Of a stretch of 64,000 bases of DNA, positions 3,681 through 44,142 are shown in pieces. This DNA is from Mobula hypostoma. Lineage: Eukaryota. The notes below the pieces were generated by a model. That model saw only the letters and a program-made list of their open reading frames with translations, ran no database searches and was not told the DNA's origin. The stretch's first letter is position 1. The number at the start of each line of letters is the position of its first letter. The stretch lies in contig NC_086097.1 in assembly GCF_963921235.1 (NCBI RefSeq), positions 138,386,001 to 138,450,000 of the forward strand, read 5' to 3'. Made by a program: the position numbers and the translations under genes.

Positions 3681-5024
3681 CATCATATCTTCACAATCAT
3701 CATATCATATTGCTTCAGGAATGCAACACATGGTTTTTAAAATTACCTTTCCTCTGTGAGGTCAGAAGCATGTACGTTTGCAAGCGGCTGCATAATGTTA
3801 GATAATGAAGATAATGAAGCAACAAATAGGAAGATCCAGAGGACATTCAGGAACAGGCTGATGAGGGGCAAGCAACATTGGAGTTGCAGGATATAACCCA
3901 TTAATTGGGATGTGGTGTAACAGTGGTAAATTTCAATATTAATATGATTTGTGATGCAAATCGTGTTACTGATTATTTAAATTTAGTTGTACTTTACAAA
4001 ATTGATATGAATACACTCCTTGTCTGATGTCTTTAACACTGAAAATACCCGATTTTAACAAAAACTAAAACCATTCTGCTGAAAATATTAGAAAAGACTA
4101 AAATCCCTTTATAAACAAAAACAAGGTAGAAAATTAAAGGCCACATTGAAGTTCATCTTTTGCACCAAATGGTGTAGATGCTTCAGGGGCAATAGGGCCC
4201 AATGTGGCTCTTTTTTCAGGTTCTTATTTTCACTACAATACACATCATTCAATTTATTCAGCATCATGTTAAAACATGGCACTGGAATTGGATCTAATAA
4301 AAATGTAGCAAACTTCAGCACCTAATTGATGGGTCATTCCTTGGCAAATATTGGTTGCAATTTACCGGCGGCTGCACAATCTTAAGAGTTGCAAATAGGA
4401 TTAAAGACATGCAGTCAATTGCAAACATACCACTTCCAATTTTGCCAGAGAGAGGCACCACAAGGTAGGTCAAGATGGTTCAGCCAAGGATAACTACCCA
4501 AAGGAACTCTTGCTTCAATGTCCTGAAGTTGGGAAAATTGGCCTTCCTTCACAACCAGCACTATATTCCTTTGTGCTAACTGGGACTCCAGCCAGTAGGT
4601 CCCACTGGGTTCAGTTCTATTAGGAGGCTCCTTGGTGCCTTGACATCAGGGATGGCACACACACCTCACTGGCAATACTCAAAGTGCAAGTAGTGGCATT
4701 ACTTGGCATTACTGTCAACGATGCTTTCAATCAGTAGCACAACGATAAAGGGTTGGAAACCAACTGGATTAGGTCTGCCCTGAATTCCATACCCAGGAAT
4801 GTTCAGACAATTTTCTATTTCATTGGGAAGATGCCAGATAAACTGGGAAAGCTTGGCTGTAAGGGCCACAAAAATCCAGTACCAAGGGCAAGCTGGCCCC
4901 AGAGCTTTTATCGTATGCAAAAAACACAAAGGGTTTGCTTTAGGCACTTCCTCCTCCCACTACTGTTGAACAACTTGCAAGCTGATGCAGGAAGATAAAA
5001 GAGCTTTGAGTTGATCCAATGGTT

Positions 5025-13054: not shown

Positions 13055-13785
13055 CAAATGGTGCAAGCTAAATCATCTGCAGCTCAACATCAGTAAGGCA
13101 AAGGAGATTGTGACAGACTTCAGGAAGGCTAAACCTGCACTGCTCCCTGATGGTGAGGATGTGGATGCGGTGAGGACCTGGGGCGTGCACCTGACTAACA
13201 GACTTGAGCGGAGCACCAACACAGAGGCTGTGTACAAGAAGGGCCAGAGTCGCTTCTACTTCCTGAGGAGACTGAGGTCCTTTGGAGTATGCAGGCCTCT
13301 CTTCGACCAGTCTGTTGGCAACAGTACAATCTTCTTTGCAGTGGTATACTGGGGCAATGACATCAACATGGGTGATGCCAACAGGCTAAATAAATTGATT
13401 GGAAAGGCTGGCTGTTATAGGAGTCAAACTGAACACACTGGAGGCTGTGGTAGAACAAGGGACCCTACGGAAAATCCTGGAAATTCTGGACGTTTCTCAC
13501 TGTCTACATGCCAGCTTGGTTGAACAGAGGAGCACTTTTAGTAACAGATTAAGACAACTACGCTGCTCCAAAGAGTGCTCTATATAAGGTCATTCTTACC
13601 CTCGGCCATTAGGCTCTATAATGAATCAACCTATAGCCAGGGAAGTGATGACCCCCTCCTGTTAAGACTGTTGAGGTAACTTTTTTTTTTCTTTCTTACT
13701 TCCCTTCTAGTACTTGTATATCCGTGCAATTGCAGTGCTACTGTGATACTGTAATTTCCTTTGGGATCAATAAAGTATCTGTCTA
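13055..13785 (+). mobile_element. Rex1/Babar-type LINE 3' fragment
   Basis: ORF 13110-13523 (DFRK..GVHL..KKGQSRFYFLRRLRSFGV). 3' end GGGATCAATAAAGTATCT. Same family as 38005-39905. Confidence 0.8.
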
Positions 13786-33460: not shown

Positions 33461-33689
33461 CTCTGTTAGGCACAGTTCCAGCTTGTGCAGTCCATCATAA
33501 AATAAAGCCCATCATCAATGAGGGAATTCACATGAGACAACTCTCTCACTAAAGCTACAGGGCACAAATGTGCTTACCATATTGGCAGGTGTATGCGATC
33601 TTGATGTTATCTCAGTGCCTCTTCATGTAGTACTCCATGACAAAGTTTAGAAAAAGGAATTGTCATGAACAGCAGGATTTAAAGGATGT

Positions 33690-33906
33690 ATGGAATGTGC
33701 AGGGAGAGTTAGCGCCTCTGGGGAAGGGACCTGTTGTGTCCAGCTGGGACAGCTTCCTCATCTTTGGACCCTCTGGACACTCAGCTCTATCCTGTGGCTC
33801 CAAGTAGTGGTTTGAATATGACAGTGACCACACCCCGATACACTACTTTGACAGGTGGGTTAAACCATTTGAGGGTAATTGCTGGGCCTCATACCCCGAT
33901 GAGATT
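33690..33906 (+). mobile_element. Old relative of the HDV-ribozyme retroposon head
   Basis: Collinear with 38196-38410: CACTCAGCTCT, CCTGTGGCTCC, CCACACCCC, TAAACCA. Confidence 0.7.
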
Positions 33907-35115: not shown

Positions 35116-35660
35116 TTTTTTAACCAAAATAAAATTTATTCATACTAAAAATTATTTACAAGAATAAACCATTCAATGCCTTTTCATTCCTTCCTCACAT
35201 GGTCAATGCTTTCCGTACTGTTCTGTTTTACATTCATACACATTAATAGTACTGCTGGCACTGATGTGGCACTCTGAGGTGGTATACTAACCACTACAAT
35301 AATTGAGAGGCTCACTGTACAGTAGGAGAATAACCCCTACACTGTGCTCCTTCCCACTGAGCCCAAATGGTGGCCGCACCAAGCTTCAATGTGTCCCTCA
35401 TCACATACTCCAGCAGACCAGAATGCGGCAGTCGGCAGCATTCTTCAATGGATATCTTGATGTGCCGGTAGACCAGAGAGTAGCTTTCACCAAGATGATG
35501 ATCTGCCAGCAGCACTTGACATTTTTTTCCTAGTGCATCCCTAGGAATCGCCCTCTGTTATGCAACTGCTCAGGATGAAATGCAACACAGGCCCTTTTGT
35601 CTGTCTCCAGACCTCTTCGCAAACCCATATTCTGCATAGAGGTGAGCTACAGTGTCTTCC
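35116..35660 (-). mobile_element. L1/Tx1-type LINE 3' fragment
   Basis: ECCRLPHSGLLEYVMRDTLKLGAA..AQW. AATAAA on the minus strand at 35135-35140. Confidence 0.7.
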
Positions 35661-35739
35661 CCACGACGGTCATCCTGCAGACCACAGCACTAGTAGAGAG
35701 GACCAAGAAGGTATGGGCAAGGGAGGCACAGGAGCGCTT

Positions 35740-37970
35740 ATAGGACTGCTTTCAGTCAGTGGACTGGACAGTAGGCAAGGATCCATCTTCGAGTCTGAAT
35801 GAATATGCCACAGTTATCACTGACTTCATTAAAACCTCTGTGGTTGAATGCATGCCTATGAGAACATACTGTACGTACCTGAATTAAGAGCCATGAATGA
35901 ACCAGAGGAGTCATCGTCTGCTGAGGGCTGGATCTATGGCATTCAACTTCTGGTGATCCAGAAGGCCACGTACGACTTACAGAGGACTAACTCAAGAGCA
36001 AAAGAACAATTCCGATTGAGGTTAGAGGCGGAATTGGATGCATGTCAACTCTGGCAGGGTTTGCAGAACATTACATCCTACAAAGTGAAACCTAACATCA
36101 TGAATGACTGTGAAGCTTCACTCCCAGATGAGTTCAACGTCTCTTATGCTCACTTTGAAAAGGAGAATAAAATTATAGCTATGTGGATACCAACGGTATC
36201 CTGTGATCTCTGTCATGGAGGCTGACCTGTTTCAAGAGAGTGAACCCTCGCAAGGTGACAGGCCTCAATGGTGTACCTGGTGGGGCTCTGAAAACCTGTA
36301 CCAGCCAACTGGCTAGTGTGTTCAAAGACATTATCAATCTCTCATTGCTACAGTTGGAAGTTCTCACCTGTACTACAAAAGGGAAACAATTATACCAGTG
36401 CCCAAGAAGAGCAGTGTGAGTTGCCTTAATGACTACATCTACAGTGATGAAGTTGGTTATGGGTTATTAGAATAACCAGGTCTCAGCAAGGACCTGGACC
36501 GTTGCAATTTGCCTATCACCACAATAGGTGTACAGTGGATGCAATCTCATTGGCTCTTCATCCAGCCTTGGATCACCTGGAAAATACTAATACTTCTGTC
36601 AGGCTGCTATTTATTGACTACATCTCAATGTTTGTAGCTGTTTGCATGCGACGCGGCCACACCCCGGGCAATGGCTTCGACAAGCCGGCTAAACCAGGTG
36701 AGCGTAGTTGACGGGTCTCAAACCCTCATGTGAAGACAGACTCTGGCGGATTGAGCAGACGAGACCAATGGAAGGTCCAATAGTGAAGAAGGCGGTCTCT
36801 GCAAGCGTCGTGGAATGTGTAGAGCAGGACAAGACACAGAAGACGTCGTGGTCATCCACTGCACCTGGTCCCATCTCCAGTCGTCTCGACTCTGTCTTGC
36901 CACTGGATCCAGATGGGAACTGGGAAGAGAGAGTGAGACTGACGCTGCGTAACTTTCCCTCACTTAAATGCATATCACGTGCCAGTCTCGACACCGTCAT
37001 AATGGTGTTGAGGTCCTCATCAACGTTGACGACGGACGAACACACATCTCAATGTTTAACACAATCATTCTCACAGTTTTGATCAAAAAGCTCCAAAACC
37101 TGGGCCTCTATACAACCATTGTAGGCTGAATCTCAGATGGTAAGGAGAGGGCATACAGAAGTGAGATATAACAGCTGGTAGAGTGGCGTCGCAACAACAG
37201 CCTTGCACTCAACTTCTGTAAGACCAAAGAATTGATAGTGGACTTCAGAAAGGGTAAGGCGAGGAAACACATACCAGTCCTCATAGAGATCAGAAGTGGA
37301 AAGGGTGATCAGTCTCAAGTTCCTGGGTGTCAATATCTCTGAGGATCTATCCTGGGCCCAACATATTGATGCAGTTACAAAGAAGGCACGACAGCAGCTG
37401 TAACTCATTAGGAATTTGAGGAGATTTGGTTTGTCACTAAAGACACTCGCAAATTTCTACTCATGTACCATGGAGAGCATTCTAACAGGCTGCATCACCA
37501 TCCAGTATGGGTGGGGGCACTGAACAGGATCAAAATAAGCTGCAGAAAGTTGTAAACTCAGTCAGCTCTATCATGGGCACTAGCATCCCCAGCATCCAGG
37601 ACATCTTCAAGGAGCGATGCCTCAAAAACACAGCATCCATCATTAAGGACCCCCATCACCTAAGACTTGCCTTCTTTTCATTGCTACCATCAGGGAGAAG
37701 TTACAGGAGCCTGAAGGCATACACTTAACGATTCAGGAATAGCTTCTTCCCCTCTGCCATCAGATTTCTGAATGGACATTGAACCCATGAACACTACCTC
37801 TCTAGTCTTGTTGCACTACTTATTCAATTTAACTTTTTTAATATGTATATACATTTTACTGAAATTTAAAGTTTGTTTTATTATTATGTGTTGCAATGTA
37901 ACCCTGCATAACAACAAATTTCATGACATATGCCAGTGATATTAAACCTGATTCTGATTCTGATTCTGAT
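35740..37970 (+). mobile_element. Rex1/Babar LINE remnant with (ATTCTG)n tail
   Basis: LDPLQFAY..DAISLALH..VRLLFIDY, KTKELIVDFR and FLGVNISEDLSW motifs. Confidence 0.85.
36634..37043 (+). mobile_element. 5'-truncated copy of the HDV-ribozyme retroposon
   Basis: 14-bp TSD ACATCTCAATGTTT at 36620-36633 and 37044-37057. Highly similar to 38309-38748. Confidence 0.9.
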
Positions 37971-38195
37971 ACAGACTGGCAAAGAAGGATCTAAAGATCC
38001 TAATGTAGATAGATAGATACTTTATTGAGCCGAAAGTAAATTACAGTGTCACAGTAATACAGTGCACAGATATACAAATATTAGAAGAGAAGTAAGAAAG
38101 AATATAAAAATAAGTTACCTCTAACAGTCTAATGGGGGGGGGTCATCACTTCTCTGGCTATGTTATCTCATTATAGAGCCATTATAGGGGTATAT

Positions 38196-38378
38196 GGGGT
38201 GTCAGGGAAGGGTGGCACCTCTGGTGGGGGAACATGTCGCGTCCTTTTCAGGGTGGTTAGTCCATCTTTGGTCCCCACCTGGCACTCAGCTCTCACCTGT
38301 GGCTCCTCGTAGCTGTTTGCATGTGACAGCGGCCACACCCCAGGCAACGGCTTCGACAAGCCGGCTAAACCAGGTGAG
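38196..38378 (+). ncRNA. Predicted HDV-like self-cleaving ribozyme
   Basis: P1 GGGGTGT/ACACCCC, P2 CTCACCTG/CAGGTGAG, P3 GGC/GCC, L3 TCCTCG, GCAA, P4 CGGCTT/AAGCCG, J4/2 G-C-TAA. Folded by eye; activity untested. Confidence 0.75.
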
Positions 38379-38748
38379 GATAGCCGACGGGTCTCAAACC
38401 CTCGATGAGATAGGGAGTTGTCTATCCCAGCATGCGAAGACAGACTCCGGCGGATTGAGTGGACGAGACCAATGGAAGGTCCAACGGTCAAGAAGGCGGT
38501 CTCTGCAAGCGTCATGGAACGTGTAGAGCAGGACAAGACACAGAAGACGTCCTGGTCATCCACTGCGCCTAGTCTCATCTCCAGCTGTCTAGACTCTGTC
38601 TTGCCACTGGACCCAGATGGGAATTGGGAAGAAAGAGTGAGGCTGACGTTGCGCAACTCTTCCTCACTTAAATCCAAATCACGCGATAGTCTTGACACCA
38701 TCATTATGGTGTCGAGGTCCTCATCGACGTCAACGATGGACGAACAAC
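38196..38748 (+). mobile_element. Apparently full-length non-coding retroposon (probably RTE-mobilised) headed by an HDV-like ribozyme
   Basis: Interrupts the Rex1 3' region. Imperfect TSD AT(A/G)GAGCC at 38173-38180 and 38749-38756. 3' hairpin GACACCAT-CATT-ATGGTGTC and AACAAC tail. Confidence 0.85.
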
Positions 38749-40201
38749 ATGGAGCCTAATGGCTGAGAGTGAGAATGACCTCGCTTTATACTCTTTGGAG
38801 CAGCACAGTTGTCTTAGTCCATTATTACTAAAAGTGCTCCTCTGCTGAGTCAAGATGGCATGCAGAGGGTGAGAAGCATTGTCCAGAATTGCCAGAATTT
38901 TCAGCAGGGTTCTTTGTTCTACCACAGCATCCACCGTGTCCATTTTGATTCCTATAACAGAGCCAACTTTTCTAATCAGTTTATTGAGCCTGTTGGCATC
39001 ACCTGTGCTGATGCCATTTTCCCAGCACACCACCACATAGAAGATCATACTGGTGACAACAGAGTGGTAGAACATGTGAAGGAGATGCCTGCACACTCCA
39101 AAGGACCTCAGTCTCCTCAGGAAGTAGGGGCAACTCTGGCCCTTCTTGTACACATCATCTGTGTTGGTGCTCCACTCAAGTCTGTCATCCAGGTGCACCC
39201 CCAGGTACTTGCAGGTTCTCACCACATCCACGTTCTCACCAACAATAGTTACAGGGAGCAGTGCAGGCTTAGTCTGCCTAAAGTCCATCACCATCCTATT
39301 TGTCTTAATGAGGCTGAGCTGCAGATGATTCAGCTTGCACCATTTGACAAAGTCCTAAACCAGGGCCCTGTATGTATCCTCCTGTCCTCCCTTTATACAC
39401 CCAACTATTGCTGAGTCATCAGAGAATTTCTGCAGATGACAAGCCCGAGGTATACCAGGTAAACAAGAAGGGAGCCAATACAGTCCCCTGTGGGGCCCCA
39501 GTGCTACTTATAGCTATGTCTGACACACAGCTCTGAAGCTGCACAAACTGGGCTGCCAGTCAAATAGTCCATTATCCAGGATACAATGGAAGCGGCAAAC
39601 TGCATTAAATGGAGCTTTTCCCCCAGCAATGAGGACTGTATGGTATCAAAGGCACTTGAGAAATCAAAAAATATGATCCTTATAGTGCTACCCTGCTTAT
39701 CTAATTGGAATAGCCTCTGTTCAGCAGGTAGATGACAGCATCATCAACTCCAATGTGCTCCTGGTAAACAAACTGCAGGGGATTGAGGGCTAATTTGACC
39801 AGGGGTCGGAGGTGAGCCAGGAACAACCCCTCTAGGGTCTTCATGATGTGTGAGGTCAGGACCAATGGATGGTAGTCATTCAAATCTTACAGTTGGCCCT
39901 TCTTTTTGTTCGTATGTCCATCTGTGAGGGTGCGACTGAGCTGCTTACTTCCTTAATGTTGTGGATCATAGAGCTCCTCCTGTGAATCTTGGAAGAAGAA
40001 ATGTGAACACGTCTCATTCTGTTCTACAGTGTGGACCCTGATCGGAAGATGATCTTGGAGGATTTGGCAGTGAAGTGCTGGGCTTGTTGGCTTTTCACTT
40101 CTCGTAACTTCTCCCTCACATCCACCCCCTTTGACTGCTGAAGGAGAATTTGCTGCAACTGTCTGTATTTTACACAGTTTCCTCTGACCCTACCTTGCTT
40201 T

Positions 40202-41426
40202 AGAACATAGAACATAGAATAGTACAGCACAGTACAGGCCCTTCAGCCCATAATGTTGTGCTGACCCTCAAACCCTGCCTCCCATATAACCCCACACCTT
40301 AAATTCCTCCATATACCTGTCTAGTAGTCTCTTAAATTTCACTAGTGTATCTGCCTCACAGGCAGTGCGTTCCACGCACCAACCACTCTCTGAGTGAAAA
40401 ACCTTCCGCTAATATCTCCCTTGAACTTTCCACCCCTTACCTTAAAGGCATGTCCTCTTGTATTGAGCAGTGGTGCCCTGGGGAAGAGGCGCTGGCTATC
40501 CACTCTATCTATTCCTCTTATTATCTTGTACACCTCTATCATGTCTCCTCTCATCCTCCTTCTCTCCAAAGAGTAAAGCCCTAGCTCCCTTAATCTCTGA
40601 TCATAATGCATACTCTCTAAACCAGGCAGCATCCTGGTAAATCTCCTCTGTACCCTTTCCATGCTTCCACGTCCTTCCTATAGTGAGGTAACTAGAACTG
40701 GACACAGTACTCCAAGTGTGGCCTAACCAGAGTTTTATAGAGCTGCATCATTACATCGCGACTGTTAAACTCTATCCCTCGACTTATGAAAGCTAACACC
40801 CCATAAGCTTTCTTAACTACCCTATCCACCTGTGAGGCAACTTTCAGGGATCTGTGGACATGTATCCCGAGATCCCTCTGCTCCTCCGCACTACCAAGTA
40901 TCCTGCCATTTACTTTGTACTCTGCCTTGGAGTTTGTCCTTCCAAAGTGTGCCACCTCACACTTCTTCGGTTTGAACTCCATCTGCCACTTCTCAGCCCA
41001 CTTCTGCATCCTATCAATGTCTCTCTGCAATCTTCGACAATCCTCTACACTATCTACACCACCACCAACCTTTGTGTCGTCTGCAAATTTGCCAACCCAG
41101 CCTTCTACCCCCACATCCAGGTCATGAATAAAAATCACGAAAAGAAGAGGTCCCAGAACAGATCCTTGTGGGACACCACTAGTCACAATCCTCCAATCTG
41201 AATGTACTCCCTCCATCACGACCCTCTGCCTTCTGCAGGCAAGCCAATTCTGAATCCACCTGGCCAAACTTCCCTGGATCCCATGCCTTCTGACTTTCTG
41301 AATAAGCCTGCCATGTGGAACCTTGTCAAATGCCTTACTAAAATCCATATAAATCACATCCACTGCACTACCCTCATCTATATACCTGGTCACCTCCTCA
41401 AAGAACTCTTATCGGGCTTGTTAGAC
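40202..41426 (-). mobile_element. Young 5'-truncated CR1 LINE
   Basis: ORF 40692-41393 with DFSKAFDKV, GVPQGSVLGP and KFADDTK. (TTCTATG)n tail. TSD ACCTTGCTTT at 40192-40201 and 41427-41436. Confidence 0.93.
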
Positions 41427-41469
41427 ACCTTGCTTTCTGAACTCTTTTGTGGAGTAAGAACCTCTTAAT

Positions 41470-44050
41470 GTTCTCCTTGGTCACCTCCCACCAGTGAACG
41501 GGGGAAAAGGTTGGCCACCGGGAAATTCTGCTTTTGGTGGACAGAGTGGAGGCACTTGACAAAGTGGTCCCCCAATTTACATCAAGTCTCACCAATGTAG
41601 AGGAGGCCGCATTGAGATCACCAGATACAATAGACGACCCCAACAGATTTGCAGGTGAAGTGTTGCCTCACCAGAAGGACTGATTAGGGTCCTGAATGGA
41701 AGTAGGGGAGGAGGTAGGTGGGCAAGTGTAGTATTTCTGTCGCTTGCAGGGATATGTGCCAGGTAAAAATGTGTTTGGTGGTAGGATGCCATTGAAGTGG
41801 TTGGTTAGTTGATGAAGAAGATCCTGAGAGGCAGGATTTATGAACATTTGGAGAGGCATAATATGATTAGGAATAGTCAGCATGGCTTTGTCAAAGGCAG
41901 GTCGTGCCTTACGAGTCTGATTGAATTTTTTGAGGATGTGACTAAACACATTGATGAAGGTAGAGCTGTAGATGTAGTGTATATGGATTTTAGCAAGGCA
42001 TTTGATAAGGTACCCCATGCAAGGCTTATTGAGAAAGTAAGGAGGCATGGGATCCAAGGGGACATTGCTTTGTGGATCCAAAACTGGCTTGCCCACAGAA
42101 GGCAAAGAGTGGTTGTAGATGGGTCATATCCTGCATGGAGGCTGGTGACTAGTGGTGTGCCTCAGGGATCTGTTCTGAGACCCCTTGGCAAATGGAGTTC
42201 AACCCAGGTAAGTGTGAGGTGGTTCATTTTGGTAGGTCAAATATGATGGCAGAATATAGTATTAATGGTAAGATGTTTGGCAGTGCGGAGGATATGAGTG
42301 ATCTTGGGGTCCAAGTCCATAGGACACTCAAAGCTGCTATGCAGGTTGACTCTGTGGTTAAGAAGGCATACTGTGCATTGGCCTTCATCAATCGTGGTAT
42401 TGAGATTAAGAGCCGAGAGGTAATGTTGCAGCTATATAGGACCCTGGTCAGACCCCACTTGGAGTACTGTGCTCAATTCTGGTCGCCTCACTACAGGAAG
42501 GACGTGGAAACCATAGAAAGGGTGTAGAGGAGAGTTACAAGGATGTTGCCTGGATTGGGGAGCATGCCTAATGGGAATAGGTTGAGTGAACCCAGCCTTT
42601 TCTCCTTGGAGTGACGGAGGATGAGAGGTGACCTGATAGAGGTATATAAGATGAAGAGAGGCATTGATTGTGTGGATAGTCAGAGGCTTTTTCCTCAGAA
42701 CTGAAATGGCTAGCATGAGAGGGCATATTTTTAAGGTGCTTGGAAGCAGGTACAGAGGAGATGTCGGGGGTAAGTTTTTTACGTGGAGAGTGGTGAGTGC
42801 ATGGAATGGGCTGCCAGCAACAGTGGTGGAGGCGGAGATGATGGGGTCTTTTAAGATATTCCTGGATAGGTACATGGAGCTTAGAAAAATATAGTGCTAT
42901 GGGTAAGTCTAAGTAGTTCTAAGGTAAGAACATGTTCGGCACAGCTTTGTGGGCCGAAGGGCCTGTTTTGTGCTGTAGGTTTTCTACATTTCTATGAGTG
43001 AGATTAATGGGGAGGAACAAATGGAGAAGGGAATCATGGAGGGAGTGATCCATGCAGAAAGTGGTGTGGGGGGCGGGGGGGGGAAGTAAAAATGTGTTTG
43101 GTGGCAGGATCCCGTTGAAGATGGTGGAATTTACAGAGGATGATGTATTGGATGTAGATGCTCATAGTGTGATAAGTGATTGAAAGAGGAACTCTTTCCC
43201 TGTTAAGGCAGCAGGAAGATGTTGTGAGCACAGATGTCTGGGAAGTGGAGGAGATGCAGGTGAGGGCAGCATCAATGGTAGAGAAAGGGAAATGCTGTTC
43301 TTTGAAGAAGCAGGTATCACCAATGTCCTGAAAAGGAAAATCCCATCCTGCAAACAGAGGCAGTGGAGATGAAGGAACCTTGAAAATGGAATAGCTGTTT
43401 TGCAGGAGACAGGGTGGGAAAAGATAACGTCACGATAACCATGGGAATCGGTAGGTTCATACAAGATGTCAGTTGACAGTTTGTCTCCAGAGATGGACAC
43501 AGAGAGATTGATAAAGGGGATGGAGCTGTCAGAAATGGAGCAAATGAATTTAAGTGAAGGGTGGAAGTTGGAGGCAAAGTTGATGAAATTGATGAGCTCA
43601 GCATGGGTCCATGAAGCAGCACCAATGCAGTTGTCAATGTCACACAGGAAGAGTTGGGGAGCATTACCAGTGAAGGCTTGGACTATTCTATGTAGCCAAT
43701 GAAAAGGCAGGCATACTGAGTGCCCAAGGCTGCCCCTTGAGCCTGGAGAAAGTGTCAGGAGCCGAAGGAGAGATTGTTGAGGGTGAGGATCAGTTCTGCC
43801 AGATGGAGGAGGGTGGTAGTGGATGGGCACTGGCTGGGTCTTGTTGAAAAAGAAGTGGAGAGTTTTAAGGCCTTCTTCATGGAGAATAGAAGTGTATGGG
43901 CACAGGACATCTATGACGATAATGAGGCAATCAAGGCCAGGGAATTGAAAGTTGTTGAGGAAATCGAGAGAATGTGAAGTGTTGCAGATGTTGGTAGGAA
44001 GGGAGTGAACCAAGAGTGGAAGAGTGCAGTCGAGGTATGCAGACAGAATA
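41470..44050 (-). mobile_element. Degenerate PLE (RT + GIY-YIG) interrupted by a CR1
   Basis: ORF 43162-44013 (LFLCDIDNCIG, NFHPSLKF, IPFSRF). GIY-YIG-like remnant at 41480-41700. Confidence 0.75.
41798..42996 (+). mobile_element. CR1 LINE, 5'-truncated with internal deletion at ~42185
   Basis: SQHGFVKGRSCLTSL, DFSKAFDKV and GVPQGSVL, then a jump to WQMEFNP (FADD motif lost). TTCTA tail. Confidence 0.9.
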
Positions 44051-44142
44051 TAGTGTTGCAGTTATAGGGGAAGTGTAGTGCAGGTAGGCAAATAAAGTCC
44101 CAGGACCATGATGAGGAAATCTAGGAGATCAGGAGTTCATCT

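Follow-up and report, generated by a model that had tools for sequence, protein, structure and literature searches.

The window, a stretch of 64,000 nucleotides of the Mobula hypostoma genome, carries at 38187–38749 a 563-nt retroposon (subfamily A) whose first 195 nt are predicted to fold as an HDV-like nested double pseudoknot bearing an extra hairpin in loop L3 (all coordinates are those of the window and all features lie on its forward strand unless otherwise stated). Alignment with its relatives indicates that this element is a bipartite non-autonomous RTE element, in which the first ~510 nt of the 5' UTR of a LINE are fused to the final ~45 nt of the 3' UTR. The original prediction of an HDV-like fold heading a short non-coding non-LTR retroposon that uses an RTE-type enzyme is upheld by the comparison of the family, by the match with a LINE family of the same genome (family D) and by alignments presented in PMC5786205. 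The idea of a free-standing SINE-like parasite has to be replaced by that of an internal-deletion derivative of a ribozyme-bearing RTE LINE lineage.

Both borders of the element are defined by its copies. A search of the genome (3.48 Gb) with 38100–38800 gave 6,109 first-look candidates; among the 40 of these that were scored, the 39 non-self matches cover approximately 38187–38749 with 94–96% identity and stop at both borders. Exact matches to a 22-nt core pattern number 3,314 in the genome, against none for the reversed control pattern. The flanks are unrelated among copies, and an exact word of 7–17 nt is common to both flanks in 22 out of 30 loci. The window copy is a worn one, with an ACA-repeat tail and target-site duplications; the 5' duplication read from the sequence (38174–38180, 7 nt, one mismatch to 38750–38756) is followed by 6 extra nucleotides before the element. 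This copy is inserted, with its 7-nt duplication, in the 3' region of a LINE remnant lying on the opposite strand, of which an uninterrupted relative is found at 13525–13688. The variable duplications, the ACA tail and the truncations displayed by the copies are the pattern left by target-primed reverse transcription, and an LTR or proviral nature was rejected because of the variable duplications, the repeat tail and the 5' truncations. When 30 copies were picked by their last 62 nt, 20 started at positions 1–7 of the element (position 1 being G38187) and one at position 13, the nine others being truncated or 5'-inverted; L163 and L168 are such 5'-inverted copies, as twin priming would give. 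At another locus (L251, G000:C1:21775730-21777606), two subfamily-A copies lie head to tail with a spacing of 576 nt. A coding role for a 116-aa frame of the element was rejected, as Pfam does not recognize this frame and neither subfamily B nor family D preserves it. No pol III A or B box was found in the element by scoring against a consensus of these boxes, and a tRNA search of the element returned no tRNA, so that it does not have the tRNA or 5S head of a SINE. Contigs from public runs of several organisms contain the family; expression suggested by runs X15 and X19 was dismissed, the RNA type being guessed and the contigs possibly being DNA.

The head is common to three short subfamilies (A, B and C) and to family D, a decayed LINE of ~4.1 kb that is probably of the RTE clade. 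Selected A copies differ by 2.3% from the A consensus. Subfamily B, found via an old copy reduced to its head in the window (33685–33905), is older, with a median of 13.9% from its consensus (40 copies), and subfamily C, which comes from the position-ordered sample described below, stands at 6.1% (9 copies: L234, L241, L252, L256, L269, L275, L276, L281 and L283). The window also includes a second subfamily-A copy (36634–37047, 83% identity to 38309–38750), which had been put forward as a sister copy; it is indeed related, but its 5' truncation falls within L3, which leaves it with no 5' strand for P1, P2 or P3. In one B copy (L089), an insertion of ~300 nt separates head and body; read by eye on the opposite strand, it resembles a tRNA-headed SINE.

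Family D was found by a search with L250, a copy of the ordered sample that runs into a longer UTR (476 candidates). Its head is of the C type and includes the L3 hairpin, its 5' UTR measures ~830 nt, and it encodes an APE domain, a reverse transcriptase (RT) and a C-terminal Cys/His motif; APE, RT and Cys/His motif lie in one frame when assembled across broken copies; all D copies examined are broken and none has an intact full frame. The D tail carries a stem-loop like those of the A and B tails and is reached by 8 of 12 extended D copies, hence the length of ~4.1 kb. In the Atlas, the clusters nearest to the D protein are APE-RT proteins, one of them named craniofacial development protein 2-like. 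Over ~505 nt (positions 1–507 of A), subfamilies A and B show 78% identity to D, and as both are collinear with D, both can be read as internal-deletion derivatives of sister LINEs. Subfamily C is 97% identical to D over 386 nt, but at a shared motif of 13 nt (38554–38566 in the window copy) it changes to a 3' half that has no alignment to D and that looks, by eye, like another type of RTE UTR in the PMC5786205 supplement. According to these alignments, C would be a tail exchange, a D-type head having been placed on the 3' half of a different RTE type, which brings a tail of its own, and such exchanges among bipartite RTE elements are described in PMC5786205. The collinearity of A and B with D reduces a broader scheme, in which three tails were swapped under one head, to this one exchange.

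Beyond the ribozyme-like head, the window copy carries the rest of the RTE 5' UTR (38382–38699, 78% identity to D), of which 38554–38699 resembles by eye the 5' UTR domain of RTE-3_AMi, RTE-3_PM and RTE-1_NV, and then an RTE 3' tail (38706–38749) made of a stem-loop and ACA repeats, like RTE-3_AMi 3854–3893 and the D tail. Since a blastn comparison between the A consensus and the D tail gave no match, the likeness of the tails is short and depends on inspection by eye. The junction between the 5'-UTR and 3'-UTR parts is spanned by a 12-bp hairpin (38690–38717; −18.3 kcal/mol for the A consensus), formed by complementarity between the end of the former and the beginning of the latter. Four of 25 pattern matches (L185, L198, L205 and L208) begin or rejoin at this junction, and the WALLSI1A junction in the PMC5786205 supplement also looks self-complementary by eye; pairing between the 5' and 3' UTRs of an RTE RNA could guide the position at which bipartite deletions arise. 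In run X19, 38700 marks a drop in summed contig depth from 206 to 2, and a contig diverges at 38697, at the predicted junction; this contig is possibly a LINE or another derivative in that organism. A still shorter derivative (L208:1278-1547) has head positions 1–243 fused to the 3' tail.

Several candidate relatives and helpers were rejected. No LINE having the tail or the 5' UTR end of A turned up among 30 loci retrieved by a tail query, and three patterns gave 0 of 25, 0 of 4 and 0 matches. The DUF6451-type RTEs of the genome (30 loci and 4 longer stretches) share neither head nor tail with the element, their sole likeness being a 22–31-nt match to B copies (E 0.005–0.017), and a PF14529 search gave 56,620 candidates, of which none of the 30 loci examined match the element. 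An RTE-like element at L121:3260-6313 (minus strand) has an open frame of 1,018 aa (APE, RT and DUF6451) and a GAA-repeat tail; a self-made descriptor found no HDV-like head in it. Within the window, several broken reverse-transcriptase frames occur on both strands at 40342–44061, which we take to be CR1-like and Penelope-like.

In the consensus sequences of A, B, C and D, the strands of P1, P2, P3, P1.1 and P4 follow one another in the order required by the nested double pseudoknot, with linkers of 3 nt and 1 nt and a P2 of 12 pairs. In the window copy, the P1 5' strand (38187–38193) includes A38192, which gives an A-C mismatch, and is followed by a large J1/2 domain (38197–38287) formed, according to the folding of three consensus heads and to pair counts, by P1.2 (38197–38206 with 38278–38287) and inner stems. 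The 5' strand of P2 (38289–38300) makes up to 12 pairs with 38369–38381, with one mismatch at 38380 here; P3 (38301–38303 with 38332–38334) encloses L3, the whole spanning 38301–38334, and the stretch 38335–38347 provides the 3' strand of P1 (38335–38341), that of P1.1 (38342–38343) and J1.1/4 (38344–38347). P4 (38348–38363) has six pairs, three of which change on both sides between subfamily consensuses without any mismatch, and 38364–38381 consists of J4/2, including C38365, the C75 equivalent, and the P2 3' strand. Most of these strands had been correctly read from the single copy: P2 as 38292–38300/38369–38378 with one bulge, P3, the P1 3' strand, AG at 38342–38343, GCAA at 38344–38347, P4 as 38348–38353/38358–38363, G38364, C38365 and the hairpin at 38312–38330. 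The J1/2 stem GGTGGGG/CCCCACC also proposed is not the conserved one; 38223–38227 pairs with 38263–38267 instead, and one of these pairs changes from G-C to A-U in subfamily B (columns 49:87).

The bases on which catalysis would depend are conserved. The catalytic C is fixed in the A, B, C and D consensuses while the base that follows it and those of J1.1/4 vary, and the U and G of L3, the CC/GG of P1.1 and the catalytic C are invariant across the three consensus heads. Core columns are identical in 54 of 55 cases against 227 of 330 elsewhere in the head (Fisher p 3e-7, three consensus heads), the sole exception being position 6, which is A in a biased A consensus. The window copy has lost one P1 pair (A-C) and one P1.1 pair, AG replacing the family GG; A38342 had been rightly regarded as a departure from a family G, which is found in the A consensus and in 234,746 of a summed contig depth of 277,878 in run X1. 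Because of these two losses, the window copy is probably slow or dead as a ribozyme. P1, P2, P3, P4, the P1.1 GG, the L3 G and the catalytic C are all intact in 7 of 43 ordered A copies. A competing pairing (38298–38303 with 38332–38337) extends P3 at the cost of P1 and P2 and is partly adopted in the minimum-energy fold of B.

The extra hairpin lies on the 3' side of L3 (38312–38330) and consists of five Watson-Crick pairs, one U-G pair and a 7-nt loop; 98.2% of its cells are paired and, folded alone, it reaches −4.4 to −6.0 kcal/mol. In subfamily C, both partners of one U-A pair are lost and the loop differs, pair 141:151 being gapped on both sides in all nine C/D rows of the alignment; a contig of run X19 (depth 122) has the same two deletions as C. 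Owing to this hairpin, L3 has a length of 28 nt in subfamilies A and B, and of 26 nt in C and D. The L3 of HDV-like ribozymes is typically ~7–9 nt long. With its long L3 and without a match to Rfam models, the structure would be a variant that "works like" the HDV ribozyme. Within the loop, U38304, C38305–38306 and G38309 are fixed, and 38307–38308 differ between subfamilies. The TCCTCG likened earlier to genomic HDV contains a minority letter, T at 38307 being found in 7 of the first 100 pattern matches listed; the consensus is TCCCCG in A and TCCAAG in B, C and D. The base before the L3 G is thus C in A and A in B, C and D, and the CPEB3-based descriptor given in PMC6326823 fixes a C there, which counts against the HDV-like reading. 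The hairpin most probably points outward behind the conserved U-CC-NN-G of the loop, as an insertion that the fold tolerates. The same hairpin is present in the related ~4.1-kb LINE, which indicates inheritance from the LINE lineage. A similar L3 hairpin is found in a lizard Vingi 5' UTR. A Vingi origin, suspected at first, was dropped because of the RTE UTR and family D matches. A search of article text, covering part of the ribozyme literature, found no description of an L3 hairpin or of this family.

A loose self-made descriptor found 45 cores in 60 second-order Markov sequences of 64 kb (0.75 per 64 kb) against one in the window; a strict one (P2 of 8 bp, P4 of at least 5 bp, CNAA), written after the site had been seen, found one core in 200 Markov sequences, again against one in the window. 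Rfam release 15, queried with 35500–40000 at E up to 10, gave no HDV-family match and two unrelated weak hits, and the folding z-score of one 216-nt copy is −2.15. As the loose descriptor is unselective and Rfam is silent, the case rests on the comparison of copies rather than on one sequence. In an alignment of 29 copies chosen by hand (10 A, 10 B and 9 C/D), 94.9% of 1,788 cells are paired, and two-sided changes affect 44 cells, 32 of them in P4, versus 12.9 ± 3.4 in shuffles and 3–11 in slid controls; the shuffle control ignores relatedness and the signal comes from a handful of events in three lineages. An A + B alignment of 44 rows gives 61 two-sided changes against 27.3 in shuffles. P4 differs in sequence in each subfamily and is fully paired in each, and the two-sided changes amount to three subfamily-diagnostic P4 pairs and one J1/2 pair, only three lineages being compared. 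In the 29-copy alignment, two-sided changes are absent from P1, P2, P3 and the L3 hairpin, whose support comes from invariance and from one paired deletion.

The 5' ends of the copies indicate where the RNA would be cut. A position-ordered sample, corresponding to the first 60 pattern matches along contig C1, comprises 61 elements, of which 43 belong to subfamily A; 27 of these start at position 1, 7 at positions 2–5, 3 at positions 6–12 and 6 further. Pooling A copies from sets not selected for an extreme 5' end, some of them selected by likeness to the window copy or by tail, gives 118 copies, which start at position 1 in 69 cases, at 2–5 in 23, at 8–10 in 6 and at 13–102 in 14. The LINE itself behaves similarly, 19 of 30 family D loci starting at positions 1–5. 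Of the position-ordered A copies, 34 extend to the base corresponding to G38187, and 31 of them have G there, as do the B, C and D consensuses. The head opens with a repeated unit, GGGGTRT-AT-GGGGTGT, whose first occurrence is perfect in 31 of 34 A copies reaching it. From the window copy, the P1 5' strand had been placed at 38196–38202, on the second unit, with a cut 5' of G38196; both are wrong by 9 nt, as shown by the 5' ends of the copies and by the pairing of 38197–38206 with 38278–38287. The outcome that was to refute this placement, 5' ends lying upstream of its P1, is what the copies display, since their ends pile up at the first GGGGTRT, 9 nt before the P1 then claimed. Therefore, P1 was moved to 38187–38193, not removed, with predicted cleavage 5' of G38187. 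The choice of the second unit arose because the window copy belongs to a minority with A at position 6. Two copies (L042 and L045) carry an extra whole or partial 9-nt unit ahead of position 1, which suggests slippage or template jumps that could also explain the origin of the repeated unit.

As the most likely explanation, the RNAs would be freed from read-through transcripts through a cut 5' of G1, then inserted in trans by an RTE protein. A copy would be transcribed from an upstream host promoter and its RNA would cut itself 5' of G1 (38187). An RTE protein made in trans would then bind the 3' stem-loop, and insertion by target-primed reverse transcription would yield copies starting at G1, ending in ACA repeats and flanked by short duplications.

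The main rival, which we consider rather unlikely, is that an internal pol II promoter sets the 5' end at G38187 and that the fold does another job (RNA stability, protein binding or translation of the LINE) or provides a back-up cleavage, as in Pr77/L1TcRz. A sharp 5' end is equally expected from a promoter, a dual promoter-ribozyme is described for L1Tc and NARTc (PMC3383444), and both the L3 insertion and the competing extension of P3 could slow cleavage. However, the first base of the copies is exactly G1 of a 7-bp P1, and the equivalents of U20, G25, P1.1 and C75 are fixed while their neighbours vary, a pattern that catalysis needs.

Much less probable is the register of the original prediction, in which the first 9 nt would be a leader. 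The window copy pairs better with the second unit (7 of 7 pairs with the P1 3' strand, versus 6 of 7 with the first), and the six starts at positions 8–10 exceed what is expected from 14 starts over 13–102, so that the second unit is maybe a minor alternative; these starts also fit truncation at a G-run microhomology. Against this register, 92 of 118 copies start at positions 1–5, the first unit is perfect in most copies and the second is locked in the 10-bp P1.2 in all three consensus folds, its partner strand changing with it between subfamilies. In folds computed without pseudoknots, the unpaired probability of positions 11–16 is at most 0.03 in the A and B consensuses and, in C, at most 0.11 for positions 11–15 and 0.64 for position 16, and positions 1–7 remain mostly unpaired in B and C and have partial pairing elsewhere in A. 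Slightly less probable still is that a GC-rich, self-complementary UTR gives this fold by chance. The yield of the loose descriptor on random sequence, the z-score and the silence of Rfam are in its favour, but the strict descriptor finds a single core in 200 random windows, the fold stands at the exact 5' end of the element, the changes within P4 and within J1/2 are compensatory and the core is fixed.

If self-cleavage at G1 does free these RNAs, the consequences go beyond this family. L3, right beside the active site, would join J1/2 and P4 as the third place at which the HDV fold accommodates a natural helix, and searches relying on a short L3 would undercount HDV-like ribozymes in vertebrate genomes. 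The thousands of dated copies would be a natural record of the cut position, and subfamily C suggests that the ribozyme head is exchangeable between RTE partners. A more tentative proposal, to which we give clearly less than even credit, is that a new and active HDV-like architecture with an L3 stem-loop, overlooked by Rfam, characterizes a whole RTE lineage and that its head of ~385 nt is a portable, promoter-free SINE head that was moved in C; the ribozyme would then take the role played by the tRNA head in ordinary SINEs. RTE UTRs are used in RNA-templated gene insertion (PMC13708176), which makes a natural template of 563 nt of some practical interest.

The overall biology, namely ribozyme-processed RTE 5' ends and bipartite derivatives, is already known. 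HDV-like ribozymes are reported at the 5' ends of RTE, R2, R4, Ingi/L1Tc and LOA elements (Ruminski 2011, as cited in PMC5786205 and PMC6765202), and ribozyme-headed RTEs as well as ORF-less bipartite derivatives of RTE, Ingi, Vingi and R2 elements are described (PMC5786205, PMC6765202, PMC4035085). RTESINE2, WALLSI3 and MAR4_MD (Kojima 2018, PMC5786205) likewise join 5' UTR and 3' UTR parts of an RTE LINE without any ORF, and the WALLSI elements resemble by eye the window element in the RTE 5'-UTR domain and the type of tail, as do RTE-3_AMi, RTE-3_PM and RTE-1_NV; for these bipartite elements, the comparison is limited to 38554 onward and the sections of PMC5786205 consulted describe no ribozyme fold. 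NARTc, RIME, SIDER and R2 SIDE (PMC4035085, PMC3414825) belong to other LINE clades and hosts, and the trypanosomatid ribozymes are 77–94 nt long versus 195 nt here. In Schistosoma mansoni, the 5' end of Perere-3, also of the RTE clade, is ribozyme-processed as well, but by a Twister and not an HDV-like ribozyme (PMC8501958). The survey of R2 ribozymes reports variable P1, P2, P4 and J1/4, its consulted text mentioning no L3 helix (PMC3774820). A similar architecture is that of retroposon HDV-like ribozymes such as drz-Agam-2-1 (PMC4908430), which likewise form a double pseudoknot from the first base of the element, with a large J1/2 containing a paired P1.2, short linkers and a P2 of 12 bp. 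To this known class, the window family, although unmatched by Rfam, adds an L3 hairpin of 17–19 nt and a 9-nt unit present twice, from which the P1 5' strand and one arm of P1.2 both derive.
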